Source: a virus. From it: a stretch of DNA of 64,000 nt. The first letter of the stretch is position 1. Each line of letters starts with the position of its first letter. Location of the stretch: the IMG/VR virus record IMGVR_UViG_3300045988_154761, positions 96,001 to 160,000 of that record. The stretch is one strand, 5' to 3'. The position numbers and the translations under genes were made by a program. A model generated the notes under the pieces. The model ran no database searches. It saw only the letters and a program-made list of their open reading frames with translations, and had not been told where the DNA came from. Positions 4,443-28,171 of this stretch are shown in pieces.

Positions 4443-4457
4443 TTAAGTATTAATTAT

Positions 4458-5521: not shown

Positions 5522-5599
5522 GGGTGTGTAGTTCAGTCTGGTCAGAACACTTGACTGTTAATCAAGGAGTCGAAGGTTCAAATCCTTCCATACCCGCCA
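5522..5599 (+). tRNA. tRNA-Asn(GTT)
   Basis: acceptor GGGTGTG/CATACCC, loop CTGTTAA, T arm GAAGG-TTCAAAT-CCTTC, G73, CCA. Confidence 0.85.
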
Positions 5600-5952: not shown

Positions 5953-6028
5953 GCTTTGGTAGCTCAATTGGTAGAGCAGTGGACTGAAAATCCACGTGTA
6001 GCCAGTTCAATTCTGGCCTAAAGCACCA
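5953..6028 (+). tRNA. tRNA-Phe(GAA)
   Basis: acceptor GCTTTGG/CTAAAGC, D arm GCTC-AATTGGTA-GAGC, loop CTGAAAA, T arm GCCAG-TTCAATT-CTGGC, CCA. Confidence 0.9.
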
Positions 6029-6029
6029 T

Positions 6030-6113
6030 TGCTGGCGAGTGAAACGGATATATAAATCACGCTTGGCTCATACCCAAGTAATAGTGGGTTCGACTCCCAT
6101 GCTTCAGCAACCA
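6030..6113 (+). tRNA. tRNA with CAT anticodon (Met or Ile2 type), irregular acceptor and oversized D loop
   Basis: anticodon arm CTTGG-CTCATAC-CCAAG, D stem GTGA/TCAC with 14 nt loop, T arm GTGGG-TTCGACT-CCCAT, CCA; acceptor needs a bulge or a mismatch. Confidence 0.55.
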
Positions 6114-6137
6114 AAAAACAAAAGGAAGTAAATTCTA

Positions 6138-6443
6138 ATGACTGATTTTAAGACTTACATTTATTAGACAGCAAGTAATAAAAAGTTTGTTTATAGATGT
6201 CCTCATTGTAATAAAGGGATAATGCAAGTAGCAGAAATTAAAACTGTTAAAGATGAAACTAATATTTTATCTTGGAATTATACTTGTCCAGTTTGTAAGA
6301 AACAAATGGTTTCTATTGAAAAAGATGGTTGTTCTTCTTTTAAAAGTGTGTTCCCTCCAATGACTCAAATTAGTGATAAAGAATTTACTGATATTAAAAA
6401 GGATGTAGGAGAAAAAGGTATCTATCTGTTCTCTGAAATATAA
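6138..6443 (+). CDS. small zinc-ribbon protein (101 aa), 1 in-frame TAG
   Basis: ATG 6138 after AAAGGAAG; TAG at codon 10; CPHC...CPVC; the track ORF 6222-6443 is its 3' part. Confidence 0.6.
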
Positions 6444-6450
6444 AATAAAT

Positions 6451-6545
6451 GCTAGCGTACAGAAGTGGTCATAACTGCCATCACTTGAAATGATGTGTGA
6501 CGGCTTGTATCCGTCTCGTGAGTTCGAATCTTACCGCTAGTGCCA
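6451..6545 (+). tRNA. tRNA-Ser(TGA)
   Basis: acceptor GCTAGCG/CGCTAGT, anticodon arm CATCA-CTTGAAA-TGATG, long variable arm, T arm GTGAG-TTCGAAT-CTTAC, G73, CCA. Confidence 0.85.
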
Positions 6546-6565
6546 TTAAAAACGGAGTCTTTAAT

Positions 6566-6769
6566 ATGAAAATCTGGAATGGAAATGATTTTGAATATCT
6601 TGGTTATTTTGTAAAAAACAACAAGAAAGCTAAATATTTTGAGGTTTTTGACAAGAATGGCAATCTTCTTTTTAGACAAACTAATTGGGGTCATGCTTGT
6701 GTGACTTCAGTTAAACATAAGATTGAAGACTTTCATAAAAAATATAGACAGGAGATAAAAAATGAGTAA
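6566..6769 (+). CDS. hypothetical protein (67 aa)
   Basis: first ATG downstream of tRNA-Ser; the longer track ORF (6497) would overlap the tRNA. Confidence 0.6.
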   Translation: MKIWNGNDFEYLGYFVKNNKKAKYFEVFDKNGNLLFRQTNWGHACVTSVKHKIEDFHKKYRQEIKNE

Positions 6770-7277
6770 TAATAATTCAATCGAAATCGAACGTAAGTTT
6801 TTAATTTCTGGTTTTCCTAAAGTTGATTTTGACGAAGTTGGAATTGTTAAAACTATTTATATTAATATCAAATATAATTCTGATGGAAAAATTTTACAGG
6901 AAATTCGTATAAGACGTTGGTTTGAAAGTGGCAAAGGTTATCGTCCAGATACTCTTACTTTCAAATCTGGTGGTACTTTAACTCGCACTGAAATTGAAAC
7001 AAATCTTACAGATAATTCTTTGTTTGACTGTTTTAATGAACTTGGTTATAATCCTATTGTAAAAGATTATAGAGGTCTTTACAATAATGGTTATTTAATT
7101 GAATTCAATCTTGTAGATGGTGGAAGTGAGACTGCTTTCTATTATGCCGAAGTTGAATTCAATTCTGAGGAAGAAGCCAATAGTTTTGTTTGGCCTTTTC
7201 CTGAAGTATTTATTGAGGAAGTTACTAATAAGCCTGAATACAAAATGGCGAATTATTGGAAACGTACTCGTGGATAA
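6762..7277 (+). CDS. CYTH-domain (triphosphate tunnel metalloenzyme) protein
   Basis: N-terminal IEIERKFLI (ExExK signature) and YYAEVEF near the C-terminus. Confidence 0.75.
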   Translation: MSNNNSIEIERKFLISGFPKVDFDEVGIVKTIYINIKYNSDGKILQEIRIRRWFESGKGYRPDTLTFKSGGTLTRTEIETNLTDNSLFDCFNELGYNPIVKDYRGLYNNGYLIEFNLVDGGSETAFYYAEVEFNSEEEANSFVWPFPEVFIEEVTNKPEYKMANYWKRTRG

Positions 7278-7301
7278 GGACTATTATTTAGTCCTTTATT
7301 T
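7277..7301 (+). terminator. intrinsic terminator-like hairpin
   Basis: AGGACT/AGTCCT stem followed by TTTATTT. Confidence 0.5.
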
Positions 7302-7377
7302 GCTGGATTAGTTCAGTTGATAGAACGTATGATTTGTAATCATAATGTCAGGGGTTTGAGTCCCTTATCCAGCTCCA
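7302..7377 (+). tRNA. tRNA-Thr(TGT)
   Basis: acceptor GCTGGAT/ATCCAGC, anticodon arm TATGA-TTTGTAA-TCATA, T arm AGGGG-TTTGAGT-CCCTT, CCA. Confidence 0.85.
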
Positions 7378-7414
7378 TGAACTTTTTTATAAAATAAAAA
7401 AGAGGATTTTTATT

Positions 7415-7606
7415 ATGGACGAATTTTTAATCTCCGAAATCTTTGAGCTGATTAAAACTTTAAAGAAAGACAAGTATACCAAGTATACCATGAAAGATGT
7501 TAATACCATTTGCGATTTGCTTGGTATTGAATTATTTTGGTATCAAAAGTTTGTTCTTCTTCGTCAGCTTAATGATAAAAATTATATGAGGTATATATGC
7601 CGATAA
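7415..7606 (+). CDS. hypothetical protein (63 aa)
   Basis: ATG after AAAGAGGA; overlaps the next gene by 10 nt. Confidence 0.6.
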   Translation: MDEFLISEIFELIKTLKKDKYTKYTMKDVNTICDLLGIELFWYQKFVLLRQLNDKNYMRYICR

Positions 7607-7866
7607 GAAACGGAAACAATGATATTTATAGTGACATTTTCTTCCAATATTTGAATGAGAATGAAGAGAAGATGATTAATGAAACCGCTTCTAAGATGGA
7701 AGAACGAAATCCGATTCTTTATCCTAAAGATGTTTCAGTAGCAATTTTGAAATCCATCTATAGTGATTATAAGAAATATCTTTATGAGCACGGATATACT
7801 TTTAAGAAAGAATACTTAGAAGAATACTTTAAAAATTTATCAGAAGAAATTTTAAAAAGTACTTGA
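7597..7866 (+). CDS. hypothetical protein (89 aa)
   Basis: track ORF; its TGA stop lies inside the next promoter -35. Confidence 0.65.
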   Translation: MPIRNGNNDIYSDIFFQYLNENEEKMINETASKMEERNPILYPKDVSVAILKSIYSDYKKYLYEHGYTFKKEYLEEYFKNLSEEILKST

Positions 7867-7891
7867 CAAGATGATGAGTATGTGGTATACT
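7863..7891 (+). promoter_or_regulatory. sigma70/sigmaA-like promoter ahead of tRNA-Arg and tRNA-Gln
   Basis: TTGACA 7863-7868, 17 nt, TGG-TATACT (7886-7891). Confidence 0.7.
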
Positions 7892-7932
7892 TAAGATGTA
7901 GTTGAGATAAGAAATAAGTAAATCTTTGATAT

Positions 7933-8007
7933 GTGGACGTAGTTTAATGGCTAAAACGGTGGCCTCCGGTTCCGCAGATAGGGTTTCGATTACCCCCGTC
8001 CACTCCA
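7933..8007 (+). tRNA. tRNA-Arg(CCG)
   Basis: acceptor GTGGACG/CGTCCAC, loop CTCCGGT, T loop TTCGATT, CCA; one mismatch each in the anticodon and T stems. Confidence 0.7.
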
Positions 8008-8058
8008 GAAAAACAAATGTCTCTCTCTTGTAGACAGACAAGATTTCCTTTTTTGTGT

Positions 8059-8165
8059 ACTTCGTGGTGGTAACAGTACGATAAATAAAATAAGCCATGT
8101 CCTGTCGGACTCAGAAATGAGATGGATGTCCTCTGTGGAGAATCGGGATTCAGGGGCGAAGTACA
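8059..8165 (+). ncRNA. unclassified ~107 nt structured element between tRNA-Arg and tRNA-Gln
   Basis: 8 bp closing helix GTACTTCG (8059-8066)/CGAAGTAC (8158-8165); internal hairpins GTCC-TGTC-GGAC and CCAT...ATGG. Confidence 0.35.
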
Positions 8166-8172
8166 AAAATAT

Positions 8173-8246
8173 TGAGCATTAGAATAATGGTAGTTCATTA
8201 GGCTTTGACCCTAATGGTGGGGGTTCGAATCCCTCATGCTCAGCCA
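8173..8246 (+). tRNA. tRNA-Gln(TTG)
   Basis: acceptor TGAGCAT/ATGCTCA (U1:A72), anticodon arm TTAGG-CTTTGAC-CCTAA, G73, CCA. Confidence 0.85.
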
Positions 8247-8260
8247 ATTAAAGGAGATAT

Positions 8261-9232
8261 ATGGATATTTTAATTGATTAGTACACAAAAGAAGAGTTAT
8301 AGCAAATTTTAAATAATAGTTCTTCTTATTCTGACGCTTTAAGAAAATTAGGATATAATTCTACATCAAACGCTAATCGTCGGCATTTAAAGAGAATTAT
8401 AAAAGAAAAAAACTTAGAAGTTAATTTTCTTCCAAAGACATACATAAAGAAATTATCTGATGAAGAAATTTTCAAAGAAGATTCTCATGTTAGTTAGAGT
8501 TGTGTGCGAGAACATTTTTTAGCTTTAAATATAGTTGAGTATAAATGTTCTATATGTGGATAGGAACCGTTTTGGAATGGAAAACCTTTAACTTTAACAT
8601 TAGACCACATTAATGGTAAAAACCGAGATAACAGACTTGATAATTTAAGGTGGGTTTGTCCTAATTGCGATAGATAGCTTCCTATTTTTGGGCGGAAAAA
8701 TAAAACAGAGTTAAAAAAGAAGAAGTTAAAAAAATTTGATTTGGTAAAAAACAACAAACCAAAATCTTACAAAAAATATTTTAAAATTTACAAAGATAAC
8801 AAAAGATTTTGTTTGGGTTGTGGAAAAGAAATTACCAATAATTCTCTATATTGTTTTGATTGTGCTAATAAGCATAGAAGAAAACAAAAAGATAGACCAA
8901 CCAAAGAAGAGTTAGAAAAAATGTTAAAAGAAGAAAAGGGTAATTTTTCAAAAATAGCTAACCAATTTGGTATTTCTGATAATGCAGTTAGAAAATGGTG
9001 TAATAATTATGGTTTATCCTGTAAATCATCTGCTTATAAAGCACCAAAAAAAGAAAAACAACAACGAATTGAGAAACCTGTAAAGCAATTAGATTTAAAT
9101 GGTAATTTAATTAAAAGCTATTCTTCTATTAATCAAGCTTATGTTGAAACTAAAATAGAGCATATTTCTCAATGTGCGAACGGGTTAAGGAAAACAGCTC
9201 GGGGTTATAATTGGGAATTTGAAAAAGATTAA
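8261..9232 (+). CDS. HNH homing endonuclease with C-terminal HTH/NUMOD-like modules; 5 in-frame TAG
   Basis: ATG after AAGGAGA; frame checked end to end (TAG only); LDHINGKNRDNRLDNLRWVCPNCDR-TAG-LP; the track ORF 8741-9232 is its 3' part. Confidence 0.8.
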
Positions 9233-9251
9233 AAATTTTTTAACAATTAAC

Positions 9252-9373
9252 GTAGACGCTTACAGCAAACAATAATAAAATCAAATTCTATTAAAAAAGA
9301 TTTAGGGTATTGTTCCTTGCTAATTAGTTTATGATGCTTTCATGATTCTCCTTTGTTAGTATTATGCGTCTAG
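9252..9373 (+). ncRNA. ACAGCAA closing-helix element, copy E7
   Basis: TAGACGC (9253-9259) pairs with GCGTCTA (9366-9372); ACAGCAA 9262-9268; no T arm in the core. Confidence 0.55.
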
Positions 9374-9380
9374 TTTATAA

Positions 9381-9447
9381 GTGCCGTACCAAGGTTGGAG
9401 TCACTCGACGGAGGGCTTAAGAAGGGGTTCGAATCCCCCACGGTGCA
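9381..9447 (+). ncRNA. tRNA-like fragment (acceptor-like stem plus T arm, no foldable D or anticodon arms, no CCA)
   Basis: GTGCCGT/ACGGTGC stem and GGGG-TTCGAAT-CCCC; the middle 36 nt do not fold as a cloverleaf. Confidence 0.3.
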
Positions 9448-9503
9448 AGATTGAATTGTTTGGAGTACTACAAACAAGATGGTAAGTTATTGATGATTTA
9501 AAA

Positions 9504-9568
9504 GTAAACCCTTACAGCAATTTAACTATTTAATTTTTGCTTGAAAAAAGATTAAGGATAGGGTTTAG
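9504..9568 (+). ncRNA. ACAGCAA closing-helix element, copy E8 (short form)
   Basis: TAAACCCT (9505-9512) pairs with AGGGTTTA (9560-9567); ACAGCAA 9514-9520. Confidence 0.55.
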
Positions 9569-9584
9569 TCCTGTAATGTTGAAA

Positions 9585-9671
9585 GTAGACACTAACAGCA
9601 ATTAAAATAAAAATACTGGGAAATATATTTAATTGGAATAAATACTTTTTTAGATTTTTAAAGTGTCTAGG
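9585..9671 (+). ncRNA. ACAGCAA closing-helix element, copy E9 (short form)
   Basis: TAGACAC (9586-9592) pairs with GTGTCTA (9663-9669); ACAGCAA 9595-9601. Confidence 0.6.
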
Positions 9672-9680
9672 ATTTTATAT

Positions 9681-9816
9681 GGGGATGTATCTCAATTGGT
9701 CAGAGGGCCCGACTTATGTTTTAGTAGTTTAAAAGTAAAACTTTTAATGCAAGTGCAAGACTTGTCTAAAACACCAAATCGGGAAGTTGAGTGTTCGAGC
9801 CACTCCATTCCCACCA
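9681..9816 (+). tRNA. tRNA gene with a 59 nt insertion in the anticodon loop (Ile-UAU if excised at 37/38)
   Basis: acceptor GGGGATG/CATTCCC, D arm TCTC-AATTGGTCA-GAGG, anticodon stem CCCGA (9708-9712)/TCGGG (9779-9783) separated by 66 nt starting CTTATG, T arm GAGTG-TTCGAGC-CACTC, CCA. Confidence 0.65.
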
Positions 9817-9837
9817 ACGGTAGCAAATTCAAATAAA

Positions 9838-9907
9838 GTAGACTCTTACAGCAATTACTTAGAGACTTGTGATTTGGGATTACATATGTTTTGAAAAATG
9901 AGTCTAG
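9838..9907 (+). ncRNA. ACAGCAA closing-helix element, copy E10 (short form)
   Basis: TAGACTC (9839-9845) pairs with GAGTCTA (9900-9906); ACAGCAA 9848-9854. Confidence 0.6.
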
Positions 9908-9915
9908 CTTTATTA

Positions 9916-9992
9916 GCGCCTGTAGTCTAATTGGATAAAACCGCACTCTTCTAAAGTGTATCTTATGAGTTCGAATCTCGTCAGGCGTGCCA
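9916..9992 (+). tRNA. tRNA-Arg(TCT)
   Basis: acceptor GCGCCTG/CAGGCGT, anticodon arm GCACT-CTTCTAA-AGTGT, T arm ATGAG-TTCGAAT-CTCGT, CCA. Confidence 0.8.
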
Positions 9993-15450: not shown

Positions 15451-15666
15451 TTGGAAGTATTGGAAAGTAAAACAGTTGTTCCTTTTACGCCAGAAGAATT
15501 TGCTGAAAGAGCACAAGAGATTGTAAATTTATGCCAAGGTGATGCAACTCTTTTAAATGGTTGGGGACATAGAGCGATGGATAGTTTAATGGAAGATGTG
15601 TTATGGTCTTTAGGTTTTGATAAGCGGATTGAAATTTTTGACCAGTTACGTCGGGTGAGGTATTAA
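15451..15666 (+). CDS. hypothetical protein (71 aa), TTG start
   Basis: TTG 9 nt after TTGGAGA; TAATG junction with the next gene. Confidence 0.5.
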   Translation: MEVLESKTVVPFTPEEFAERAQEIVNLCQGDATLLNGWGHRAMDSLMEDVLWSLGFDKRIEIFDQLRRVRY

Positions 15667-16214
15667 TGAAGCAACTTAGGAAAAATGTTTTTGAGACTAA
15701 TTCTTCAAGTGTTCATTCATTGAGTATTAGTAGTAAAGATAATTATGATTATACTCAGTTAGATGATTATATTGAAGAAGATTATGGCCACAATGGTTAC
15801 GGTAAGTATCTAAAATTAAATTTTGAAGCCTTTGGATGGGGTTGGGATTCTGATTTAGATGACAATAGCGCAATAGCTAAACTTGAATATATTTTAACTG
15901 CTATAACTTGTTTCCAAGGTTATAATGTTAATTGGAGCAGCAAAGAAGATAAAGAAGAAGCTATTAAAGAAGTTATGGAATCTGATGATTTCCAAAAGTT
16001 TGAAGATGATGTAAAGTACGCTCTTTCTAAGCATGATATTCACATTACAGGAATTGAAATTAGTCCTGATGAAGATGGTTATGTAGACCATCAAAGTCTT
16101 GATTATTATGTTTCTGATGGAATGTATTATATTTTTGCAAGAGATGGAATTACATTAGAAGATTATATTTTTAATAAATGTTATAGTTTGATTATCGACA
16201 ATGACAATCACTAA
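15666..16214 (+). CDS. FETNSSS-family protein, paralog 1 (function unknown)
   Basis: N-terminus MKQLRKNVFETNSSSVHSLSI; C-terminal GYVDHQS motif. Confidence 0.75.
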   Translation: MKQLRKNVFETNSSSVHSLSISSKDNYDYTQLDDYIEEDYGHNGYGKYLKLNFEAFGWGWDSDLDDNSAIAKLEYILTAITCFQGYNVNWSSKEDKEEAIKEVMESDDFQKFEDDVKYALSKHDIHITGIEISPDEDGYVDHQSLDYYVSDGMYYIFARDGITLEDYIFNKCYSLIIDNDNH

Positions 16215-16354
16215 CACAAAAATAAAATAAAATAAGATAGAATAAAAGTGAAATTTTATCGTATCAATTTTTATTAAAAAATTAACAATTTTTCTTGTTT
16301 TTTAATAAAAAAGCTGCAAAAACAGGGTGAAAAAACAATTAAGGAGTAATTAAA

Positions 16355-16561
16355 ATGTCTAATAATAATAGTTGTATGTTTAAGTGTAAGAAGAAGAACT
16401 CAATTGATGGAAAGATTTATCGTGTATATCAGATTATGCCTCTTCCTAATCAGTTTGGTGCTCTTGGTCTTGTGGGTATTATGTATTGTGAGCAGGACAA
16501 GAAGTTTGATGCTAATGATTTGAGCCAGTTTGAAATTATTGAAGAGATTTCCCTTCAGTAA
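16355..16561 (+). CDS. hypothetical protein (68 aa)
   Basis: ATG after AAGGAG. Confidence 0.6.
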   Translation: MSNNNSCMFKCKKKNSIDGKIYRVYQIMPLPNQFGALGLVGIMYCEQDKKFDANDLSQFEIIEEISLQ

Positions 16562-16598
16562 TTAAATCAAAAAACTAACGAAATAATTTAATAAACAC

Positions 16599-16627
16599 TT
16601 GACATTTACCTCTCCTTATGATATTCT
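16599..16627 (+). promoter_or_regulatory. sigma70/sigmaA-like promoter inside an anti-SD/SD hairpin
   Basis: TTGACA 16599-16604, 17 nt, TGA-TATTCT; spacer ACCTCTCCTTA (16608-16618) is complementary to TAAGGAGAGGT (16642-16652). Confidence 0.65.
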
Positions 16628-16658
16628 TTTAGTAGAAAAAATAAGGAGAGGTGTTTTT

Positions 16659-17453
16659 ATGAACCTTTGCAATCAGTATAATCGTTTCGTTCGTTTTGTT
16701 GGTGATATTCTCATTACTGACCCTTGTTATATTATCCGCGAAGACCGCAAGATGAATTATAATGCTTATCCTAAGATGGAAGATTATTATTCCAAATATA
16801 AGATTATTGGGGATGGACACAAAGGTTATCCTACTCCTGATATGTATGAAGATGTTATTTATATTGAAATGAAGAAACCTCTTCGTATCTACGACCTTCC
16901 TGAAAGTCATCGTACTCCTGAGAGAGAAGCGAAGCTTGTTGATGCTTATGAAACGTGGATTAGAGGGACAAGAACAAAAGACCCTAATATTCACGTGATT
17001 CCTCTTTCTCCCACTTACGAAACTGAAAATGAAGCTTACAACAAAGCTGTAGCAAAGTGGGATTCTGAACAGGAAGATGACTGGGGAAAGTGCTGCTGCG
17101 GAGAAGCCATGGAAAAGCTTGGCCTTAATACTTTTATCGTCTGCGACACTATTTATGGTGATTGGTCTTGCACTGTTTTTAATTCTTTGACCAAGGAAAA
17201 GATGGGAGAGTTCTGTGCTGATTCTGGTCAGGTTGGTATTTTCCTTATGAGCGAAGTTCTTAAATATAACCCTAATCTTGACCTTCCTAAGCATTGTGCT
17301 ACTATTATTAAAAATTTTGATGGACATGTTCGTGTCAACAAGAAGAATAATGGTAAGTATACTTATGATGGCGAAGAATATGATGATATTGTTGCAGAGG
17401 TTGAAGGTGTCAGCAACACCTTAAATTTCAAAAGTGCTCAGACTGGATTTTAA
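16659..17453 (+). CDS. hypothetical Cys-containing protein (264 aa)
   Basis: ATG 16659 after TAAGGAGAGG; the track start 16599 is the promoter -35. Confidence 0.75.
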   Translation: MNLCNQYNRFVRFVGDILITDPCYIIREDRKMNYNAYPKMEDYYSKYKIIGDGHKGYPTPDMYEDVIYIEMKKPLRIYDLPESHRTPEREAKLVDAYETWIRGTRTKDPNIHVIPLSPTYETENEAYNKAVAKWDSEQEDDWGKCCCGEAMEKLGLNTFIVCDTIYGDWSCTVFNSLTKEKMGEFCADSGQVGIFLMSEVLKYNPNLDLPKHCATIIKNFDGHVRVNKKNNGKYTYDGEEYDDIVAEVEGVSNTLNFKSAQTGF

Positions 17454-17462
17454 GGAGATAAT

Positions 17463-18098
17463 ATGAAGCAGATTAGACGTAATGTTTTTGAAACTAATAG
17501 TAGCTCAAGTCATTCTCTTGTAATTACGACTGATAATGAACATTATACGAGAAAAGAAATCAACGATGAGTTTTATCTTACCAGAGAGGGCAAGGTAAGA
17601 TTGTGGGAATCTTCTCTTGAGTTTTACCGTTCACCTTTTGATATGCTGACAACTTTTAAGGGTAAATTGAGATATGCTATTGCTTCTTCTAACGGCAATC
17701 TTGTAGATGAACTTCGAGAAATTTGCAAGAAGTATATTGATGGATTCATAGATTTTGAATTTGATACAAAAGATTATGTTTGGGATTCAAATGTTAAAGA
17801 TTATGTAGAAGCAAAAAGTCCTGTCCCCAACTATGGTGGTACTGATGACTATCAAATTGAGGGCTGGCTTAAGCATTATAATATTTCTCTTGAGGAATTT
17901 TTAATTAATAAGAGATATATTGTAGTTGTTGATGGCGATGAATACACCATTTATGACCACATCAAAAAATCGGGTCTTTTTGACACATCAAAAATTATTC
18001 ATGATAGTTATGCTGAAGAACAAGAAAAATGGCACAAGCAATATTTAGCTCAACTGGAAAAGGAGAAAAAAGATGCAGACTCCAAACATGAAGACTAA
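17463..18098 (+). CDS. FETNSSS-family protein, paralog 2
   Basis: MKQIRRNVFETNSSSSHSLVI; ATG after AAGGAGA. Confidence 0.75.
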   Translation: MKQIRRNVFETNSSSSHSLVITTDNEHYTRKEINDEFYLTREGKVRLWESSLEFYRSPFDMLTTFKGKLRYAIASSNGNLVDELREICKKYIDGFIDFEFDTKDYVWDSNVKDYVEAKSPVPNYGGTDDYQIEGWLKHYNISLEEFLINKRYIVVVDGDEYTIYDHIKKSGLFDTSKIIHDSYAEEQEKWHKQYLAQLEKEKKDADSKHED

Positions 18099-18522
18099 AC
18101 GCAAAATGAAGCGTTATGAATTATCTGACTATTTTCTTTCTTTAAATACAGCAGAACAAATTGTTCTTCTTACTGACGCAGGGTTTAAAGAGGGATTTTG
18201 GAGAGAATCTAAAAAGTCTGACCATTATTGGATGACTTATCATTTTTGTCTTTTCAACTCCAAAATAGAAAGAATTTCGTATGAATTTAGCTTTGATGTA
18301 GCAATTGACCTTGATGACCTTAAGTCTTGGAATGATTTTGATAATCTTGAAGTCATTGATGATGATTTTGGTCAGCCGTACAATGCTTTTTTCAAAGCTC
18401 AAGATAGTGGACATAGTTTTTCTTTTCTTGATATGATTATTAAGAAGTATGAAAATAAAATGAACAAACTGGTAGAATCCAAAATTTTAGAAGAGGTAAA
18501 ATTAAATGAAACAAATCCGTAA
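18073..18522 (+). CDS. hypothetical protein (149 aa)
   Basis: ATG after AAGGAGA; overlaps both neighbours. Confidence 0.65.
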   Translation: MQTPNMKTKRKMKRYELSDYFLSLNTAEQIVLLTDAGFKEGFWRESKKSDHYWMTYHFCLFNSKIERISYEFSFDVAIDLDDLKSWNDFDNLEVIDDDFGQPYNAFFKAQDSGHSFSFLDMIIKKYENKMNKLVESKILEEVKLNETNP

Positions 18523-18943
18523 AAACGTATTTGAAACGAATTCTTCTTCTACTCACACTCTTGCTATTTGTACCGAGGATGAATATAAAAAATGGCAAGA
18601 AGGTAAAATGCTTTTTAACAAATGGAATGAAACTTTTATTAAAAACTCCATTAATATTACTAAGCAAGATAAAGTAGAAGCTGAAGAAAGATATAACACA
18701 TATAAAGGGAAGTACTATAAAGACTGGTCTGAACTTACAGAGGCAGAAAGAGACGAGTATACTTATAATTATATTGCCCAGCAACGCAGACAGGAAAAGA
18801 GCTTTTCTTTTGAAGAGGATGGTTTGACCTATCAAGAATTTATGCAAGATTGTAGTAACGGGGGACTTGAAACCGAAACTTCTCGCTATACTTCCCCGAG
18901 CGGAGACAAGCTTGTTATTACTTGTGCTTATGGTTATAACTAA
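18506..18943 (+). CDS. FETNSSS-family protein, paralog 3 (shorter)
   Basis: MKQIRKNVFETNSSSTHTLAI. Confidence 0.7.
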   Translation: MKQIRKNVFETNSSSTHTLAICTEDEYKKWQEGKMLFNKWNETFIKNSINITKQDKVEAEERYNTYKGKYYKDWSELTEAERDEYTYNYIAQQRRQEKSFSFEEDGLTYQEFMQDCSNGGLETETSRYTSPSGDKLVITCAYGYN

Positions 18944-18992
18944 TAGTTAAAAATATTTTAATAGGTCAAGGAGATTATTTTTTATTAACTCC

Positions 18993-19021
18993 TTGACTTA
19001 TCTCTTTTTATAGAGTATAAT
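18993..19021 (+). promoter_or_regulatory. sigma70/sigmaA-like promoter flanked by hairpins
   Basis: TTGACT 18993-18998, 17 nt, TATAAT 19016-19021; upstream hairpin GTCAAGGAG (18966-18974)/CTCCTTGAC (18989-18997) overlaps the -35; the spacer pairs with the downstream SD. Confidence 0.65.
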
Positions 19022-19047
19022 TTAGTTACTCGAAAGGAGAGATGATT

Positions 19048-19446
19048 ATGCTCGAAGGAATTAATATTATTAGTACAGAAGTAACTAAAGATGTAGATGT
19101 TCCTCTTTTTATTTTTATTTGTGGAATTGCTTGTGTTTTAATGTTTTGTTCAATCCAACTTCTAAAAGTTGGTTTTGGAATTACAAAATCCACTTCGCAC
19201 AAACTTTTTAAAATTGTTTTTAACAGTTTAAATATTGTTATTTTAGGAGTTTGCTTATTCTTTTCTTCTATTATAGTAAGCAAAGCTCTTAATGATTGTT
19301 TTTTCAATCCAATTTATTATAATGAATACACTGTAACGATTTCCGATGAAGTTAGTTACAATGAATTTACTAAGAAATATGAAATTCTTGAATACAATGA
19401 AAAAGATAGCACTTATGTAATTAGGGAGAAAGAAAATGTCGATTGA
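19048..19446 (+). CDS. small membrane protein, tandem paralog 1 of 4
   Basis: MLEGINIISTE, TM segments, ...KYEILEYNEKDSTYVIREKEN; alternative ATG at 19042. Confidence 0.7.
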   Translation: MLEGINIISTEVTKDVDVPLFIFICGIACVLMFCSIQLLKVGFGITKSTSHKLFKIVFNSLNIVILGVCLFFSSIIVSKALNDCFFNPIYYNEYTVTISDEVSYNEFTKKYEILEYNEKDSTYVIREKENVD

Positions 19447-19822
19447 AAATAACCCAGCCATTGAAGTACTTAATACAGTTACAACTACAAGTAACGGAAA
19501 CATGTTTGTTCTTATTGTGTCTGTTGCTATTGTTGTTGTTGGAATTGCTGGTATATGCACATTTATTGTAGATTGGGTTAAAAGAAACGGGTCAATGGAT
19601 GGATTTTGTGCTATTGTTATCGCAACAATTATCTTCTGCGTGATTGCAGGATTCAATGTTTATGCAATGAAGCATCCAGTTGAAACTATTTCTTATGAAA
19701 TTAGATTTACTGACCCCGACCATTTTTCTTTAACTGATTATGAAAAACTTGAAGAAGACTATATTGTTTCCAGAAAAGGGAAAATTTACACATTAAAAGA
19801 AAGGGTTGACAAAGATGATTGA
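19436..19822 (+). CDS. small membrane protein, tandem paralog 2 of 4 (most divergent)
   Basis: AIEVLNT, TM segments, ...YIVSRKGKIYTLKERV; 11 nt overlap with the upstream gene. Confidence 0.65.
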   Translation: MSIENNPAIEVLNTVTTTSNGNMFVLIVSVAIVVVGIAGICTFIVDWVKRNGSMDGFCAIVIATIIFCVIAGFNVYAMKHPVETISYEIRFTDPDHFSLTDYEKLEEDYIVSRKGKIYTLKERVDKDD

Positions 19823-20171
19823 TGGTGTTAATCTAATTACTACTGAGACTATTTGTATTTCTGGTAGTTTTTTGAGTAATCTGTTTCCTGCTATTATTGG
19901 AGTCGTAGGCTGTATTGCTGCAATTGTTGTAGCAATTCTTTGTGTTAAGGAAGAAGAATGGGGAGCTTTCTTCTTTGGTTTATCTATGGGCTTTCTTTTA
20001 GCTTTGGTTGCTTTTTTCTGTTTCAAGGATGCCTTTAATCCAAGATATGAAGAGCGATATCTTGTCCAGTTAGATGATAAAATTTCTTCTGAATTTATTG
20101 ACAAATATGATATTGTAGAACGAAAAGATAATAATGTCTATATAATTAAAGAGAGGAATACAAATGATTAA
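19815..20171 (+). CDS. small membrane protein, tandem paralog 3 of 4
   Basis: MIDGVNLITTE...KYDIVERKDNNVYIIKERN; ATG 19815 chosen by paralog alignment. Confidence 0.7.
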   Translation: MIDGVNLITTETICISGSFLSNLFPAIIGVVGCIAAIVVAILCVKEEEWGAFFFGLSMGFLLALVAFFCFKDAFNPRYEERYLVQLDDKISSEFIDKYDIVERKDNNVYIIKERNTND

Positions 20172-20517
20172 GGGTGTTGAAGTTTTAACCTCCGAAATGG
20201 TTAGAACATCTCCTGAATTTGATGGTTTAATTTTTACTGGGGTTCTTTTTATAGGTTTCACCTTAGTTCTATTTTGTTATTTCATCGACTGCGTTAAAAA
20301 CAAACTTGGTTGGACAACTCTTGTTTGTGCTATAGGTGTTATTTTACTTAGTTTGGTTGCTGGTAAAATGTTTAGAAATGCTTTCTTTCCAACCTATGAA
20401 GAAAGATACATGGTACAATTAAAAGAAGAAGTTCCTTTAGATTTTATAAAGAATTATGAGATTCTTGAAGATAAAGGAAATGACATTTATATTGTTAGAG
20501 AGAAAGGAAACGAATAA
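20164..20517 (+). CDS. small membrane protein, tandem paralog 4 of 4
   Basis: MIKGVEVLTSE...NYEILEDKGNDIYIVREKG. Confidence 0.7.
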   Translation: MIKGVEVLTSEMVRTSPEFDGLIFTGVLFIGFTLVLFCYFIDCVKNKLGWTTLVCAIGVILLSLVAGKMFRNAFFPTYEERYMVQLKEEVPLDFIKNYEILEDKGNDIYIVREKGNE

Positions 20518-20519
20518 AA

Positions 20520-20690
20520 ATGAAGATTTATTGTGCATATGACCACCTGAATTGTGAGTCTGCTCCAAAGTCTCAGGAAGAGGTTCATGCTTGTGAATAT
20601 TATGGTTCTTACCTTTGTAATGCTTGTCCCTCTCGTTATGATGGTGACAAAGTAAAGAAGTATATGGAGGATAATCCTCGTGAACACTAA
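20520..20690 (+). CDS. small Cys-rich protein (56 aa), below the track cutoff
   Basis: ATG 20520 two nt after the previous stop; MKIYCAYDHLNCES...HACEYYGSYLCNACPSRYDG; TAA at 20688-20690. Confidence 0.5.
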   Translation: MKIYCAYDHLNCESAPKSQEEVHACEYYGSYLCNACPSRYDGDKVKKYMEDNPREH

Positions 20691-20937
20691 TGGAGTTAAA
20701 CTGTATAATGAACGTGTAACAAAAGAATTTCTTAAGTATCGCAAGGTTCATCGTATTTATTGCAGTGATTGTAATGTTGAAATGAAGCGAAGTGGAATGG
20801 TTTATGCTACTTATCCACCCCTTTATGAGTATGTATGTCCTAAGTGTAATCACAAAATGACTTCTTCTGTTATTTATCCTGCAATTGAAGAAGTTTGGGA
20901 AAATGAAGATGATATGAGAAGAGAGGTAATGGACTAA
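20680..20937 (+). CDS. zinc-ribbon protein (85 aa), GTG start
   Basis: GTG 8 nt after GGAGGA; CSDC...CPKC. Confidence 0.55.
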   Translation: MNTNGVKLYNERVTKEFLKYRKVHRIYCSDCNVEMKRSGMVYATYPPLYEYVCPKCNHKMTSSVIYPAIEEVWENEDDMRREVMD

Positions 20938-21896
20938 TGAGCAATATTAAGACTTATCAGAATGGCAACTATATGGTTTCCATCGACTTGGCAAATGGAA
21001 CCAAGACTCGTGAAAATGATTTGAGCTTTTTCAAGGCTGATTTTCCAGAGTGCTGTGATTATAAAATTACTAATAATTGCGCACAGGGTTGTAGCTTTTG
21101 TCATGAGAACAGTACTCCAAATGGTAAGCATGGTGACATTCTTGGTGAACAGGGTATCAAGGTTCTTGAAAGTTTCCATGAATACACCGAGCTTGCAATC
21201 GGAGGTGGAGACCCTCTTTCTCATCCTGATTTGATTCCTTTCCTTCGTAAGTGTAAGGAGCTGAATCTTATCCCTAACATGACTGTTCACCAGTTTTCCT
21301 TTATGAAGAATCAGGAGCTTATTGAACAGCTTGTTAATGAGAAGCTTATTTATGGTATTGGTGTCTCTCTTGTTGACCCTCTTCAGCCGCAGTTCCTTAA
21401 GACTATTTCTAAGTATCCTAATCTTGTTCTTCATGTTATTAATGGCATTGTAACGATGGATACTCTTCGTGCTCTTAAGAATCGTGGGCTTAAGATTCTT
21501 ATTCTTGGCTATAAGACTGTTCGTCGTGGTGAAGAGTATGTTAAGGAAGATTGGGCTAAGGAACTTGTAACAAATAAGCAGAAGGCAATCTATGATAATC
21601 TTGGTCGTATGATTGATGAAAAGTGGTTCTCTGTTATTAGTTTTGACAATCTTGCTATTAAACAGCTTGAGCCTAAACGTCTTATGTCTGAGGAAGATTG
21701 GAATACTATGTATATGGGCGAAGACTATGATAATATGTCTAGTGCTTCTATGTACATTGATGCAGTAGAAATGCAGTTTGCTTGTAACTCTTGTGATGTA
21801 AATCATCGTTATGATGTTGGCAATAAGACTGTTACTGAAATGTATCAATTCTTGAGAGATTTAAATGGAGGAAACAACGATGAAACAAATTCGTAA
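20937..21896 (+). CDS. radical SAM enzyme (substrate unknown)
   Basis: CAQGCSFC (CxxxCxxC) near the N-terminus and AIGGGDPLSHPD (GGE-like SAM motif). Confidence 0.8.
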   Translation: MSNIKTYQNGNYMVSIDLANGTKTRENDLSFFKADFPECCDYKITNNCAQGCSFCHENSTPNGKHGDILGEQGIKVLESFHEYTELAIGGGDPLSHPDLIPFLRKCKELNLIPNMTVHQFSFMKNQELIEQLVNEKLIYGIGVSLVDPLQPQFLKTISKYPNLVLHVINGIVTMDTLRALKNRGLKILILGYKTVRRGEEYVKEDWAKELVTNKQKAIYDNLGRMIDEKWFSVISFDNLAIKQLEPKRLMSEEDWNTMYMGEDYDNMSSASMYIDAVEMQFACNSCDVNHRYDVGNKTVTEMYQFLRDLNGGNNDETNS

Positions 21897-22464
21897 AAAC
21901 GTATTTGAAACTAATTCAAGTTCTTGCCATTCTCTTGTTATTTCAAAGGATAATTATGGTTCAGAACATATTCCAGCTTATTTAAATTTTAATGCAGATG
22001 AAGATTATGGTTGGGACACACGTTGCTACTCTTCCACAGAAGATAAGGCTTCTTATCTTTACACCGCCATGCTTAATTGTGATATGTTTGCTCAAGCGAA
22101 AGATTTTAAGCGTAAACTTGAAGAAGATTTTAAGATTAAAATTTTCGTTCCAGCCTATAAAAGAGAAAAAAGTACATATGGTGGTTGGGAATTTTGGGAT
22201 AATGGCGGTTCTGTAGACCATGCAGGAGAACTTGTTCCCTTCATTAATGAAATTCTTGAAGATGATGACAAGTTAAAGCGTTTTCTTTTCGACCCAAGAA
22301 GTTGTATTTATACTGGCAATGATAATGGTTGCGACCCTGATGATAATTGTTATGTTGCTGATGCAGATGAAAATGGCGAATATTACGATTGGCGCACCGA
22401 AAAAAATATTAAGCATCCTCTTTGGGACGGAGAACATTATGAATATTACTTTAAGGGGAATTAA
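21880..22464 (+). CDS. FETNSSS-family protein, paralog 4
   Basis: ATG 21880 after GGAGGA; MKQIRKNVFETNSSSCHSLVI; GGSVDHAG. Confidence 0.75.
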   Translation: MKQIRKNVFETNSSSCHSLVISKDNYGSEHIPAYLNFNADEDYGWDTRCYSSTEDKASYLYTAMLNCDMFAQAKDFKRKLEEDFKIKIFVPAYKREKSTYGGWEFWDNGGSVDHAGELVPFINEILEDDDKLKRFLFDPRSCIYTGNDNGCDPDDNCYVADADENGEYYDWRTEKNIKHPLWDGEHYEYYFKGN

Positions 22465-23378: not shown

Positions 23379-23440
23379 TTAGACTCTCACAGCAAACTAC
23401 AAAAAACTTTTATTTTGAAAAAAGGACAAAAAGAGTCTAG
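23379..23440 (+). ncRNA. ACAGCAA closing-helix element, copy E11, in the 5' leader of the vWA protein gene
   Basis: TAGACTCT (23380-23387) pairs with AGAGTCTA (23432-23439); ACAGCAA 23389-23395. Confidence 0.6.
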
Positions 23441-23462
23441 TCCTTTAGAAAAGGAGAAAATT

Positions 23463-25181
23463 ATGTATAACTACAACAATCCTAACAAGAAGAATAACAC
23501 TAAGGCTTGGGCTCCTAAGCCTGAAAAGCCTGTTACTAAGTCCAACCGAGTTAGCCGTAAGGCTTCTTTCATGGACAAGGTTGAGAATACTGCTAAGGGT
23601 TACTACACTCAGATTGCAGTTCCTTCTCTTCCTGCTGATAAGCAGTACACTTCTAACGGTGCTATTGCATACAAGTCCTCTGGTTCTGCTCTTCTTGACA
23701 TCAACACTTCCATCTCTGCTCTTCGTAGCCTGCCCGATGGTGATATTGTGAAGAAGTTCCGTGCAGCTTATTGTGAGAATCCTCGTCTCGCTATTCGTTG
23801 GCTGTTCTATGCTGGCGATATCCGTGAGGGTCAGGGTGAGCGCCGTCTCTTCCAGATTTGCCTTAAGGATATGATGAACAATGGTGGTGCTCAGATTGTG
23901 GCGAACCTGATTCCTATGATTCCTGAGTATTCTCGTTGGGATTATATCTATGTTGTCATGGATAATCCTACTACTAAGCCTGTTGTTCGTGAACTGATTC
24001 GTAAGCAGTGGAAGGAAGATATGGCTAATATGAAGAAGGGCAAGTCCATTAGCCTTATGGCGAAGTGGCTTGATAGTGCTTCTTCTCACAGCCATGATAC
24101 TCGTAAGCGTGGTCTTAAGACTATGGATATGCTCGGTCTGACTGAGCGTGAGTATCGCAAGGGTCTGTCTGCTCTTCGTAAGCACCTTGACGTTGTTGAG
24201 CGTAAGATGTCTTCTCAGAATTGGCAGAGCATTGATTATGAGACTGTTCCCTCTAAGGCAAACCTTAATTACAATAAGGCTTTCCTTCGTAATGATGAGG
24301 AGCGCCGTCGTGCCTATCTGAACGCTCTTACTAAGGGCGAGGCAAAGATTAATTCTTCTGTATCTAATCCTTGTGACATTGTTCACAAGTATTGCGAGAA
24401 TGATTGGGGTACTTCTCCTCATTCTTATGATGCCGCCCTTGAAGGCATGTGGAAGGCTCTTCCCAATCTTGTAACCGATGATAGTTCCACTATTGTTGTT
24501 GCCGATGGCTCTGGTTCTATGTGCGCTACTGTTGGTCGTACTCGTATGACTGCTCTTGAGGTTGCTAACTCTCTTGCAATTTACTTTGCAGAGCGTGCTA
24601 AGGGTGCATATAAGGGTCGTTACATTACTTTCTCTGCACGTCCTCAGATGGTTAATGTTAATCATGACTCTTTGCGTGCAAATCTTAGGGAAGCTGCTCG
24701 TCATAGTGAGATTGCTAATACCAACCTTGAAGCAGTATTTGACCTGATTCTTGATACTGCAATTAAGAATCATTCTCCTCAGAGTGATTTGCCAAAGAAT
24801 ATTCTGATTATCAGTGATGGTGGTTGGGATTCTATGGTAAATATTCGTACTCTTAATACTGGCAGTGGTTATGGTTATTGGGGCTATAACAGCACTCGTG
24901 CTACTGCTAAGGAAGCTCCTGCTTTCCTTAAGTCCATTGAGCAGAAGTACAAGAACGCTGGATATGAGATGAGCAAAATTTGTTATTGGAATGTTTGCGG
25001 AAACGGTACTACTGGTAACGGTCTTCCCATGACTAAGAATGATTATGGTATCATGGTCAGCGGGTTTAGTATCCAAACTTTGAAAATGATTCTCAGCGGC
25101 AAGACTAATCCTTGGGATGCACTTATGGAAGTGGTTTTGGATAAGCGTTACGACAAGATTGAAGAGCTAGCTTTTAAGTAA
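23463..25181 (+). CDS. DUF2828-like protein: helical N-terminal region plus C-terminal vWA domain with MIDAS
   Basis: ATG 23463 after AAGGAGA; NGAIAYKSSGSALLD, RLAIRWLFYAGDIREGQGERRLF, VVADGSGSM (DxSxS). Confidence 0.7.
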   Translation: MYNYNNPNKKNNTKAWAPKPEKPVTKSNRVSRKASFMDKVENTAKGYYTQIAVPSLPADKQYTSNGAIAYKSSGSALLDINTSISALRSLPDGDIVKKFRAAYCENPRLAIRWLFYAGDIREGQGERRLFQICLKDMMNNGGAQIVANLIPMIPEYSRWDYIYVVMDNPTTKPVVRELIRKQWKEDMANMKKGKSISLMAKWLDSASSHSHDTRKRGLKTMDMLGLTEREYRKGLSALRKHLDVVERKMSSQNWQSIDYETVPSKANLNYNKAFLRNDEERRRAYLNALTKGEAKINSSVSNPCDIVHKYCENDWGTSPHSYDAALEGMWKALPNLVTDDSSTIVVADGSGSMCATVGRTRMTALEVANSLAIYFAERAKGAYKGRYITFSARPQMVNVNHDSLRANLREAARHSEIANTNLEAVFDLILDTAIKNHSPQSDLPKNILIISDGGWDSMVNIRTLNTGSGYGYWGYNSTRATAKEAPAFLKSIEQKYKNAGYEMSKICYWNVCGNGTTGNGLPMTKNDYGIMVSGFSIQTLKMILSGKTNPWDALMEVVLDKRYDKIEELAFK

Positions 25182-26818: not shown

Positions 26819-27230
26819 TGAATGGCGTAAAGAGTTTGGTCGTGTTCAAGTTTTACTTTATGCTTTTCCTAATGTTTTAAAGAAAATTGGCAATGAAGAT
26901 TTAATCAAAGAACTTAAGATTTTAGGTTATGATGAGCATACTCTTGACTTTCTTAACTCAGCTATGGATGCTTGGGAGAAAGTTGAAAAAGAAGAGCTTA
27001 TGAAAGATATGAATGTTCAACCTGACCCAGATACTATTCCAGTTCCTAAGAAAGCACCTGTTGCACCTGAAGAGCCTAAAAATCCTTCTATTTCTAATTA
27101 TCATTTTCAACCTGCTTGGTGTAGTAATTGTATTCATAGTTGGGGAATAGACTGTTTTAGAGACCCTCTAAATGATATACCTTGTCCTAATTATAGAAGA
27201 GACCCGCCCGATGGAGGTTTTTACGGATAA
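26799..27230 (+). CDS. hypothetical protein (143 aa)
   Basis: track ORF; overlaps both neighbours. Confidence 0.65.
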   Translation: MTVKEYNEWRKEFGRVQVLLYAFPNVLKKIGNEDLIKELKILGYDEHTLDFLNSAMDAWEKVEKEELMKDMNVQPDPDTIPVPKKAPVAPEEPKNPSISNYHFQPAWCSNCIHSWGIDCFRDPLNDIPCPNYRRDPPDGGFYG

Positions 27231-28171
27231 TGAGAGTTTTATCTTTGTTTGATGGTATTAGTTGCGGTCATCTTGCACTTGAGAGAGCTGAAATTAAGAT
27301 TGATTCTTATGATGCTTATGAAATTGAAAAGAACGCAATTAAAGCTACAGAAACAAATTTCCCTGATGTGATTCAGCATGGAGATGTAACCATAGAAGAT
27401 TTTACCAAATATAAAGGTAAAATTGATTTACTTATTGGGGGTTCACCTTGTACAAATTTGAGCATGGCTGGTAATGGTCAAGGATTAAAAGGTTCTCAAA
27501 GTAAATTGTTTTATGAATATGCTCGTGCAATAAAAGAAGTCCAACCCAAATATTTTTTACTTGAAAATGTAATTATGAAAAAAGAATGGGAAGATATTAT
27601 TACAAATATTCTTGGAGTAGAACCCATTGAAATTAATTCTTCTCTTGTTTCAGCACAGAACAGACGTAGACTTTATTGGACTAATATCCCTAATGTAACA
27701 CTTCCCGAAGATAAAAATATTACTCTGGAAGATATTCTTGAAGATATTGAATTTCCCAATCCTGCGGCAATTAGAGGTCGTAGATTAAATAAAGCCACTA
27801 TTGTTGGTCGCAGATTAGATAAAAACGGGCATAGAAAAGATACTGATAAAACAATTCCTATTACACAATGTCTCGAAGTCCGCGCTACAAACACAGACAA
27901 ATCAAATTGTCTCACTACTGTAGACAAGGATAATGTTCTTACGCCACTTCCTATTGGTAGACATCCAGATGCTTTTAAAAATAATTTACCTTTTAGATAT
28001 TATACTACTAAAGAAATGTGTCGTTTACAGACTGTTCCTGATGATTTTCTTAATATGATTCCAGATAGTGCAGCAAGAAAGGCATTAGGTAATGGATGGA
28101 CAGTAGATGTAATTGCTCATATTTTTAGTTTTCTTCCAGATGAATATAAAGAGGACAAAATAAATGATTAA
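27230..28171 (+). CDS. dcm: DNA (cytosine-5)-methyltransferase
   Basis: motifs LFDGISCG (I), GGSPCTNLS (IV), ENV (VI), QNRRRLYW (VIII), GNGWTVDV (X). Confidence 0.9.
   Translation: MRVLSLFDGISCGHLALERAEIKIDSYDAYEIEKNAIKATETNFPDVIQHGDVTIEDFTKYKGKIDLLIGGSPCTNLSMAGNGQGLKGSQSKLFYEYARAIKEVQPKYFLLENVIMKKEWEDIITNILGVEPIEINSSLVSAQNRRRLYWTNIPNVTLPEDKNITLEDILEDIEFPNPAAIRGRRLNKATIVGRRLDKNGHRKDTDKTIPITQCLEVRATNTDKSNCLTTVDKDNVLTPLPIGRHPDAFKNNLPFRYYTTKEMCRLQTVPDDFLNMIPDSAARKALGNGWTVDVIAHIFSFLPDEYKEDKIND

Follow-up and report, generated by a model that had tools for sequence, protein, structure and literature searches.

We describe a widespread, uncharacterised two-component system, sometimes fused into a single protein, in which a radical S-adenosylmethionine (SAM) enzyme is paired with a new family of proteins that share an invariant N-terminal tail. 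Four genes for tailed proteins (p1 to p4) and one for the enzyme lie on a 64,000-nucleotide stretch of viral DNA (IMG/VR record IMGVR_UViG_3300045988_154761, positions 96,001 to 160,000; this whole stretch is called the window). Synteny, co-occurrence and gene fusion show the two families, as read from their genes, to be tied in a functional partnership. The region is best explained as an expanded copy of a conserved cassette made of one enzyme and one or more tailed partners. We favour the view, at a probability of roughly 45%, that the tail enters the active site of the radical SAM enzyme and is modified there.

The theme of a radical SAM enzyme with a dedicated protein partner is already known, and such pairs have repeatedly given new chemistry, including formylglycine, glycyl radicals and peptide cross-links. 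For the present pair and its partner family there is no curated model, no solved structure and, as far as we found, no paper; a full-text literature search with motif strings, and with radical SAM combined with phage, megaphage, Ma-LMM01 or Arash, returned no description of the system. Phages of Bacillota, Bacteroidota (Lak megaphages among them), cyanobacteria, Salmonella and probably Thermus carry the pair, as do some bacterial chromosomes. Some of the carriers can be cultivated, namely Salmonella phage Arash, Microcystis phage Ma-LMM01 and, probably, the Thermus phage phiYS40. With these carriers and a tail of nine invariant residues, the chemistry and role of the system are directly accessible to mass spectrometry and phage genetics. 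The proteins are named in databases only as 'hypothetical protein' or 'radical SAM protein', and thousands of 'hypothetical protein' entries can now be assigned to a defined two-component system.

A portable N-terminal tail

A six-frame scan of the window found exactly four F-E-T-N-S-S-S sites, all at the N-termini of p1 to p4, each 8-9 residues past an ATG that is preceded by a ribosome-binding site. The N-termini are MKQLRKNVFETNSSSVHSL in p1, MKQIRRNVFETNSSSSHSL in p2 and MKQIRKNVFETNSSSCHSL in p4; p3 joins the common tail to a C-terminal domain unrelated to that of the other three, with the C-terminal end YTSPSGDKLVITCAYGYN. Over the first 19 residues, 16-17 are identical in any pair of the four proteins, compared with 27-37% identity elsewhere. 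The same 19 codons differ synonymously at 5-11 positions per pair and include serine TCN/AGY switches, each of which needs two base changes. These synonymous differences point to selection on the peptide rather than to recent duplication or gene conversion, and support the view that the four genes are ancient paralogs under protein-level selection. A preliminary description of this DNA, made from its letters alone, had noticed the near-identical N-termini and their synonymous codons and had drawn the same conclusion about selection; both points held up. It had also given all four proteins two shared downstream motifs, which is accurate only in part. G-x-(V/T)-D-(H/D) is found in p1, p2 and p4, and L-E-(D/E)-(F/Y)-(I/L)-x-N-K is found in p1 and p2 and is degenerate in p4; p3 has neither.

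The proteins p1, p2 and p4 form a long type and are homologous to each other over their full length (hhalign 99.9%; E 1e-37 for p2 against the p4 type). Further motifs are FGWGWD, GYVDH and IIDNDN in p1, GGTDDY and VVVDGDEY in p2, and DYGWD, GSVDH and TGNDN in p4. An invariant D-H and either G-N-D-N or D-G-D-E are found in the long types and together look like a metal site. Orthologs of p1 (90-97% identical) are found in phage contigs of roughly 150-220 kb, and p4 is 39% identical to gp130 of Ma-LMM01. The p4 reading frame has a second ATG upstream at 21865; the start at 21880 is favoured because the distance between motif and Met1 is fixed across the family and because GGAGG stands eight bases before this ATG. 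The short type, represented by p3, ends in Y-T-S-P-x-G-D-x-x-V-A-F-G-x-Y-G-Y-D and lacks every candidate ligand motif of the long type. When short and long profiles were compared with hhalign, only about the first 40 residues aligned. Many further C-terminal types also bear the tail. These alignments show the tail, by sequence criteria, to be a portable invariant N-terminal module carried by at least two unrelated C-terminal domains.

A profile search over 1.84 billion representative proteins returned 4125 clusters at 50% identity with E <= 1e-3, of which 424 had E <= 1e-10. The partners share the signature M-x2-3-[IV]-R-x3-F-E-T-N-S-S-S-x-H-S. Among 149 representatives compared in a logo, each of R, F, E, T, N, S, S, S and H occurs in 146-149 sequences, no tail position holds a conserved Gly, and in 141 of the 149 the Glu stands at residue 10 or 11, which fixes its distance from Met1. 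The pattern R-x3-F-[EA]-T-N-S-S-S-x-H within about 20 residues of Met1 was counted in all four window proteins, in 149/149 representatives (single residues in 146-149) and in 115 of 120 proteins fused to the enzyme, which are described below.

The preliminary description could not place the family, and neither could profile databases. None of p1 to p4 matched a Pfam, NCBIfam or PADLOC model. The one related group, phrog_28997, has no annotated function; p4 matches it over residues 3-168 (E 5.8e-23), p1 and p3 match it through the tail only, and p2 does not match. No Pfam family recurred among 69 relatives or among ten unusually long members, and PDB sequence searches with long-type and short-type profiles found nothing. 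AlphaFold models of p2 and p4 are confident overall, with a predicted local distance difference test (pLDDT) score of 92.5 and 92.2, respectively. Both predict coil for residues 1-15 and are least confident over residues 1-10, where the p2 model averages only 48. Comparison of these two models with the PDB by Foldseek, which the preliminary description had recommended, found no fold neighbour (best E 0.3-0.5, TM score <= 0.19). Several possible resemblances were set aside, since none of these folds came up in the Foldseek comparison and their motifs stand in a different order: HAD motifs I and IV (F-D-x-D-G-T ... G-D-x-x-N-D), PIN (D-T-N), Toprim (E ... DxD), calcineurin-type GNH(D/E), Asn-Ser self-cleavage of Ntn-hydrolases, the flavodoxin phosphate loop and pyruvoyl enzymes. 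Foldseek against BFVD returned one uncharacterised phage protein and a weak match to a 461-residue 'Radical_SAM domain' protein, and it was through this weak match that the fusion proteins were found.

Linkage to a radical SAM enzyme

The gene that the preliminary description had taken for a CxxxCxxC radical SAM gene is one by both motif and profile. Its product scores 41.3 bits against PF04055 (cutoff 29.5) and matches phrog_16999 with E 1.9e-37. It contains C48-x3-C52-x2-C55-H-E, GGGDPLSHP, ILILGYKxxRRG, SFDNLAIKQL and YMGED. In an alignment of 22 diverse homologs, C48, C52 and C55 are invariant and no Cys is conserved outside these three cluster ligands; the enzyme therefore has no SPASM or twitch domain. 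Predicted SAM-site motifs are the GGE-like GGG(D/N/E)P and the GxIxGxxE-like VxHVINGI. Every NCBIfam match lies far below its family cutoff (NrdG 24.6 vs 126.1 bits; PFLA 15.6 vs 231.75), and matches to TIGR04053, PqqE and SkfB, also far below cutoff, cover the N-terminal cluster region only. These matches, weak as they are, go best to NrdG, PflA, PqqE, SkfB and HxsC, whose substrates are proteins or peptides, and the best PDB sequence matches are PqqE and SkfB. The enzyme family comprises about 6800 clusters at 90% identity, and the clade of interest is marked by YxNGN, CxxxCxxCHE, LILGYK and SFDNL. Two homologs, of 691 and 699 residues (L018:3629-5704 and L050:10611-12710), contain a LAGLIDADG-type intein, which in the former sits in the G-G-G-N-P-L SAM-binding motif.

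Conservation of the gene neighbourhood, a check recommended in the preliminary description, was examined in both directions. The peptide patterns used to fetch loci derive from the conserved motifs, and canonical members are favoured as a result. Genome loci were drawn from 185,579 species genomes with the tailed family alone, and the enzyme was sought within 6-8 kb. A single enzyme homolog was found in 22 of 28 such genome loci, and 79 of 80 IMG/VR loci fetched in the same way contained one. Many of the 'genome' loci are contigs of metagenome-assembled genomes (MAGs) and may be mis-binned phages. In the reverse test, 76 new loci were fetched with the enzyme. A strict-motif tailed protein was encoded in 64, almost always just upstream on the same strand, and the variant Y-E-T-N-S-S-I-x-H in 2 more, so that 66/76 have a tailed protein; 5 of the 76 are cut off upstream. 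In three Christensenellaceae MAG contigs (L147, L156 and L170) the enzyme follows genes for an ATP-grasp protein (292 residues) and an S33 alpha/beta-hydrolase (309 residues), with no tailed protein within 6 kb, and these loci may represent another use of the same enzyme clade.

Collapsing the loci at >= 65% identity of the radical SAM protein gave 62 enzyme lineages. The enzyme is present in 62/62 and the tailed family in 57/62, with 119 members that are all co-oriented. No other family is widely shared: the next real one, an AAA_33/HD kinase, is found in 7 lineages, and across the 62 no prohead protease, capsid, peptidase, exporter, transporter or immunity gene is linked. In deposited phage genomes, the tailed family and the enzyme are found in the same 24 records, those of Lak and Microcystis phages. 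In Ma-LMM01 the pair is gp130 (tailed) and gp128 (enzyme, annotated 'Fe-S oxidoreductase'). A single enzyme accompanies 1 to 9 tailed proteins. The operon order seen most often is long, short, radical SAM, and only a few bases separate the genes. The window has a dispersed version of it (long, long, short, six unrelated genes, radical SAM, long), in which the enzyme gene lies 2 kb downstream of p3 and its 3' end overlaps the 5' end of p4 by 17 nt. The same invariant tail recurs in phages of cyanobacteria, Bacteroidota, Bacillota and Salmonella, as well as in an operon on a Thermoguttaceae chromosome. This operon is common to three Thermoguttaceae MAGs, in one of which it lies within a 453-kb contig among ordinary cellular genes. 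The alternative named in the preliminary description, a housekeeping family with no conserved linkage to its neighbours, is not what these loci show: the linkage to the enzyme is conserved and extends to fusion. A cysteine desulfurase (Aminotran_5) gene lies immediately upstream of the pair in one phage contig (L034:6077-7183), and a similar gene is present in 4 of the 62 lineages; it may support assembly of the Fe-S cluster.

In some proteins the two are fused. In gp146c of Salmonella phage Arash, a long-type domain (hhalign 98.8%, E 1e-16) with G-Y-I-D-H and G-G-N-D-N is followed by a PF04055 domain. Judged by its domains, the protein is a fusion of a tailed long domain and a radical SAM enzyme, and its database label is wrong (Table 1). 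A search with gp146c returned 726 clusters, the best 120 of which span 435-570 residues at 92-100% query coverage; thus at least 120 clusters have a size and coverage that fit the fused form. The beginning R-x-G-F-A-T-N-S-S-S-x-H-S is found in 115 of the 120, and Ala always replaces the Glu of the tail. No second tailed protein is encoded at the sampled fused loci, so the minimal unit consists of one long domain and the enzyme. Arash gp146c is also a cultivable and genetically tractable example of the cassette. The Arash paper (PMC10585845) does not discuss gp146c, and it was not among the proteins that a term search of the virion proteome table turned up there, which is weak evidence against a place in the virion. 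In Thermus phage phiYS40 (gp162-gp161; L192:2515-4532) the gene for a 317-residue protein that starts MRRLKEVRLTSMTNSSSASM runs 4 nt into the start of a divergent radical SAM gene. This gp162 retains only T-N-S-S-S, and homology past the motif is not significant, so it is a lead only.

Table 1. Positions and supporting evidence for the cassette genes, their tail codons, the genes between them and the Arash fusion protein
Feature	Position	Strand	Evidence or remark
p1, long-type tailed partner, 182 aa	15666..16214	+	Open reading frame (ORF), motif scan; C-terminal part groups with long types
p2, long-type tailed partner, 211 aa	17463..18098	+	ORF, motif scan
p3, short-type tailed partner, 145 aa	18506..18943	+	ORF, motif scan
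Radical SAM enzyme, 319 aa	20937..21896	+	PF04055; phrog_16999; linkage to tailed family
p4, long-type tailed partner, 194 aa	21880..22464	+	ORF, motif scan
Invariant-tail codons	p1 15666..15722, p2 17463-17519, p3 18506-18562, p4 21880-21936	+	DNA alignment, codon count
Four tandem paralogs with two transmembrane segments (TM) each, plus two small Cys-rich/zinc-ribbon ORFs	19042..20937	+	Between p3 and enzyme
Four tandem paralogs	19042-20517	+	Two predicted TM each; C-terminal N-P-x-Y-E-E-R-Y-x-V-Q-L ... Y-x-I-x-E domain conserved
Small Cys-rich/zinc-ribbon ORFs	20520-20690 and 20680-20937	+	
Arash gp146c (Salmonella phage, OQ632216)	L191:3512-4942		Annotated 'methyltransferase'; long domain, then radical SAM domain

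Possible roles of the tail

The preliminary description had offered a catalytic site or a targeting or cleavage signal as the meaning of the shared N-terminus; the linkage data narrow this to an element that works with the radical SAM enzyme. In the reading that we favour, the flexible tail would insert into the open side of the radical SAM barrel, where one residue of the T-N-S-S-S core, a serine most likely, would lose a hydrogen to the 5'-deoxyadenosyl radical, and the tail would thereby be altered after translation. In the long types the modified tail, together with the D-H and G-N-D-N/D-G-D-E residues, would complete an active site as a protein-derived cofactor. Such a maturation would have its parallels in the formylglycine that anSME makes in sulfatases and in the glycyl radical that activases install. 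A single enzyme would mature all four paralogs of the window. There is a weak hint, because genes for RNA repair recur nearby, that the substrates of the matured proteins may be RNA or nucleotides.

Modification is favoured because one enzyme serves 1-9 tailed proteins with unrelated bodies, and because the usual operon encodes two tailed proteins, which as subunits would compete. The tail is also terminal and, in the models, apparently flexible (coil, with lower pLDDT), the weak affinities of the enzyme point to protein- or peptide-directed radical SAM enzymes, and the Glu appears dispensable once the tail is tethered. The constant replacement of Glu10 by Ala in the fusions fits a recognition residue that becomes superfluous when the tail is attached to the enzyme. 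The tail Glu also takes part in E-T-N-S-S (15693-15707, and equivalent sites in p2-p4), which matches the bacterial N-glycosylation sequon D/E-x-N-x-S/T; this is probably coincidence, since the Glu is Ala in all fused forms.

Several points weigh against modification. Protein-directed radical SAM enzymes usually act on Gly or Cys, and neither residue occurs in the tail. Those radical SAM enzymes that cross-link peptides or oxidise them by two electrons mostly have auxiliary clusters, and the present enzyme has none. Most recognition motifs get by with fewer than nine invariant residues. Long domain and enzyme are fused in hundreds of lineages that encode no further tailed protein close by, and such an arrangement is more usual for two domains of a single enzyme than for an enzyme with its substrate. 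Finally, residues 11-20 have a pLDDT of 78-86, so part of the tail may pack on the body of the protein.

The main rival is a two-part holoenzyme, which we regard as a real possibility at well under even odds. Here the tailed proteins would be interchangeable subunits for specificity or co-catalysis rather than substrates. The tail would dock in the barrel and supply Asn, Ser and His residues for binding or acid-base catalysis, and the body would recruit a substrate from outside, for instance a metabolite, a nucleotide or a base of RNA or DNA; with several paralogs, one radical enzyme would have several specificities. The fused form is widespread and self-sufficient, and it resembles the fusions of RRE, TRAM and flavodoxin domains that occur in other radical SAM enzymes. 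The invariant D-H and GNDN/DGDE of the long type suggest a ligand or metal site, RNA-repair genes are recurrent neighbours, and the conservation of the tail exceeds that of a typical recognition motif. A holoenzyme is harder to reconcile with two different tailed proteins per enzyme in the usual operon, whose identical tails would compete for one active site, and with the short type, which has none of the candidate ligand motifs. That Glu has become Ala in every fused protein argues against a catalytic Glu, and we know of no precedent for a partner's N-terminal peptide that completes a radical SAM active site, which also counts against it.

Polar residues that are conserved (E, N, S, S, S, H, D-H and N-D-N) look catalytic in their own right, and consecutive enzymes of a pathway also show operon linkage and fusion. 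It is conceivable, though improbable, that the genes encode separate enzymes of one pathway for the modification of a small molecule or nucleic acid. The radical SAM enzyme would make or alter a compound, and the tailed proteins, as metal-dependent hydrolases or transferases, would take the step before or after; the tail would be a loop of their own active site that does not touch the radical SAM enzyme. The lack of a linked transporter, protease or immunity gene in the 62 lineages agrees with such a pathway. The short type and many other C-terminal types, however, keep the tail without D-H or NDN, so the tail would function independently of that putative site. Nothing else is conserved nearby to supply or consume a metabolite, and tail residues 1-10 are predicted to be disordered.

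Divergent clustered paralogs with a conserved N-terminus also resemble T4-type internal protein loci, and several precursor genes upstream of one radical SAM gene are the classic layout of systems for RiPPs, peptides that are made on the ribosome and modified after translation. Either comparison would make the N-terminus a targeting or processing signal, directing proteins into the capsid in the style of T4 internal proteins or serving as a cleaved leader in the style of RiPPs. We consider this very improbable, and the targeting or cleavage signal of the preliminary description loses most of its ground. The tail is invariant over phages of unrelated hosts and morphotypes and in the chromosomal Thermoguttaceae operon, and prohead protease, capsid, peptidase and exporter genes are never linked in the 62 lineages. 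Furthermore, the 'cores' would be folded domains of 100-300 residues, and in the fused forms the tail belongs to the enzyme itself. Both the pathway and the signal fit the data less well than do modification of the tail and the holoenzyme.

If the tail is modified, a bolder proposal can be made, which we hold only tentatively and consider doubtful as a whole. The enzyme may install a previously unknown protein modification or protein-derived cofactor on T-N-S-S-S-x-H, for example a serine-derived aldehyde, a cross-link or a radical. It would define a new enzyme class, with a fold unseen in the PDB, used by large phages of many hosts, possibly in conflicts with the host over RNA or nucleotides.

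Neighbouring genes and comparison with known systems

The window has 32% G+C, and nearly all of its genes are on one strand. Close relatives are found among IMG/VR phage contigs, at 214-220 kb, and in a contig of 123 kb that was binned with a Clostridium MAG; megablast against 50,697 deposited phage records found none near-identical to the region. The four tandem membrane paralogs and the small Cys-rich ORFs that the preliminary description counted as part of the cluster do exist (Table 1), and their proposed membership of the cassette failed the test of co-conservation. Homologs of the genes at 16355, 16599, 18073, 19042-20517, 20520, 20680 and 22467 occur only in the closest relative (L001) and are absent from the other loci; these genes are therefore insertions of one lineage rather than parts of the conserved unit.

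Just downstream of the cassette (23415-25181) is a gene for a 588-residue protein with DUF2828, DUF7788 and vWA domains, a TROVE/Ro-like architecture. In other lineages, the genes that recur near the cassette encode vWA-TerF, RlaP, a CCA-adding enzyme, the AAA_33 plus HD kinase, RNA ligases, Macro and NADAR, which suggests that the cassette tends toward an RNA-repair neighbourhood. About 6 kb upstream of the cassette, at 388-9992, 13 tRNA genes lie among short ORFs, all on the + strand (Val, Ser x2, Glu, Tyr, Leu, Ala, Asn, Phe, Thr, Arg x2 and Gln). Elsewhere the window encodes a C5 cytosine DNA methyltransferase (27230-28171) and a 330-residue protein with a C-terminal SPOR (peptidoglycan-binding) domain (39066-40058).

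Among known systems, that of anSME/AtsB and the sulfatases is alike in that the radical SAM gene adjoins genes of the proteins that are matured. As proposed here, the likeness would extend to a short invariant Ser-containing motif near the N-terminus as the target, and to a modified residue that acts with metal-binding Asp, His and Asn. However, the sulfatase motif (C/S)-x-(P/A)-x-R is absent from p1-p4, which also have no sulfatase Pfam match. The models of the partner have no PDB neighbour and therefore do not appear to have an alkaline-phosphatase-type fold, and anSME has the SPASM domain and auxiliary clusters that the present enzyme lacks. The activases PflA and NrdG are, like our enzyme, small single-cluster radical SAM proteins with CxxxCxxC-H-x; they share with it weak profile matches, a gene side by side with that of the partner and, as proposed here, action on a protein loop. 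The scores nevertheless fall far below the family cutoffs. The tailed partners, moreover, lack R-V-x-G-[FWY] and a conserved Gly in the tail, and are 100-250 residues long, whereas glycyl radical enzymes have about 600-800.

The radical SAM RiPP maturases (PqqE/PqqA, SkfB, SCIFF and the His-Xaa-Ser system HxsBC/HxsA) share the layout of one radical SAM gene with 1-9 upstream paralogs that are conserved at the N-terminus and divergent elsewhere. The 'precursors' here differ in being folded proteins of 100-320 residues with confident models, rather than short leader and core peptides, and no RRE, SPASM, protease or exporter was found in the alignment or the 62 lineages. In addition, the conserved part is here the likely site of action and not a discarded leader. 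The borosin OphMA is alike in that a modifying enzyme is fused to the peptide that it would modify, as in gp146c and the at least 120 clusters of fused size. OphMA, however, is a SAM methyltransferase with its substrate peptide at the C-terminus, whereas the present enzyme is a radical SAM protein for which self-modification is only hypothesised. T4-type capsid-targeting sequences likewise join divergent phage paralogs by a short conserved N-terminal peptide, but they are lineage-specific and cut by the prohead protease, and the present tail is invariant across unrelated phages and some bacteria and goes with a radical SAM enzyme. By its genes, then, the system resembles the layouts of anSME and sulfatases, of the activases and of RiPP maturation, but departs from the defining features of each.

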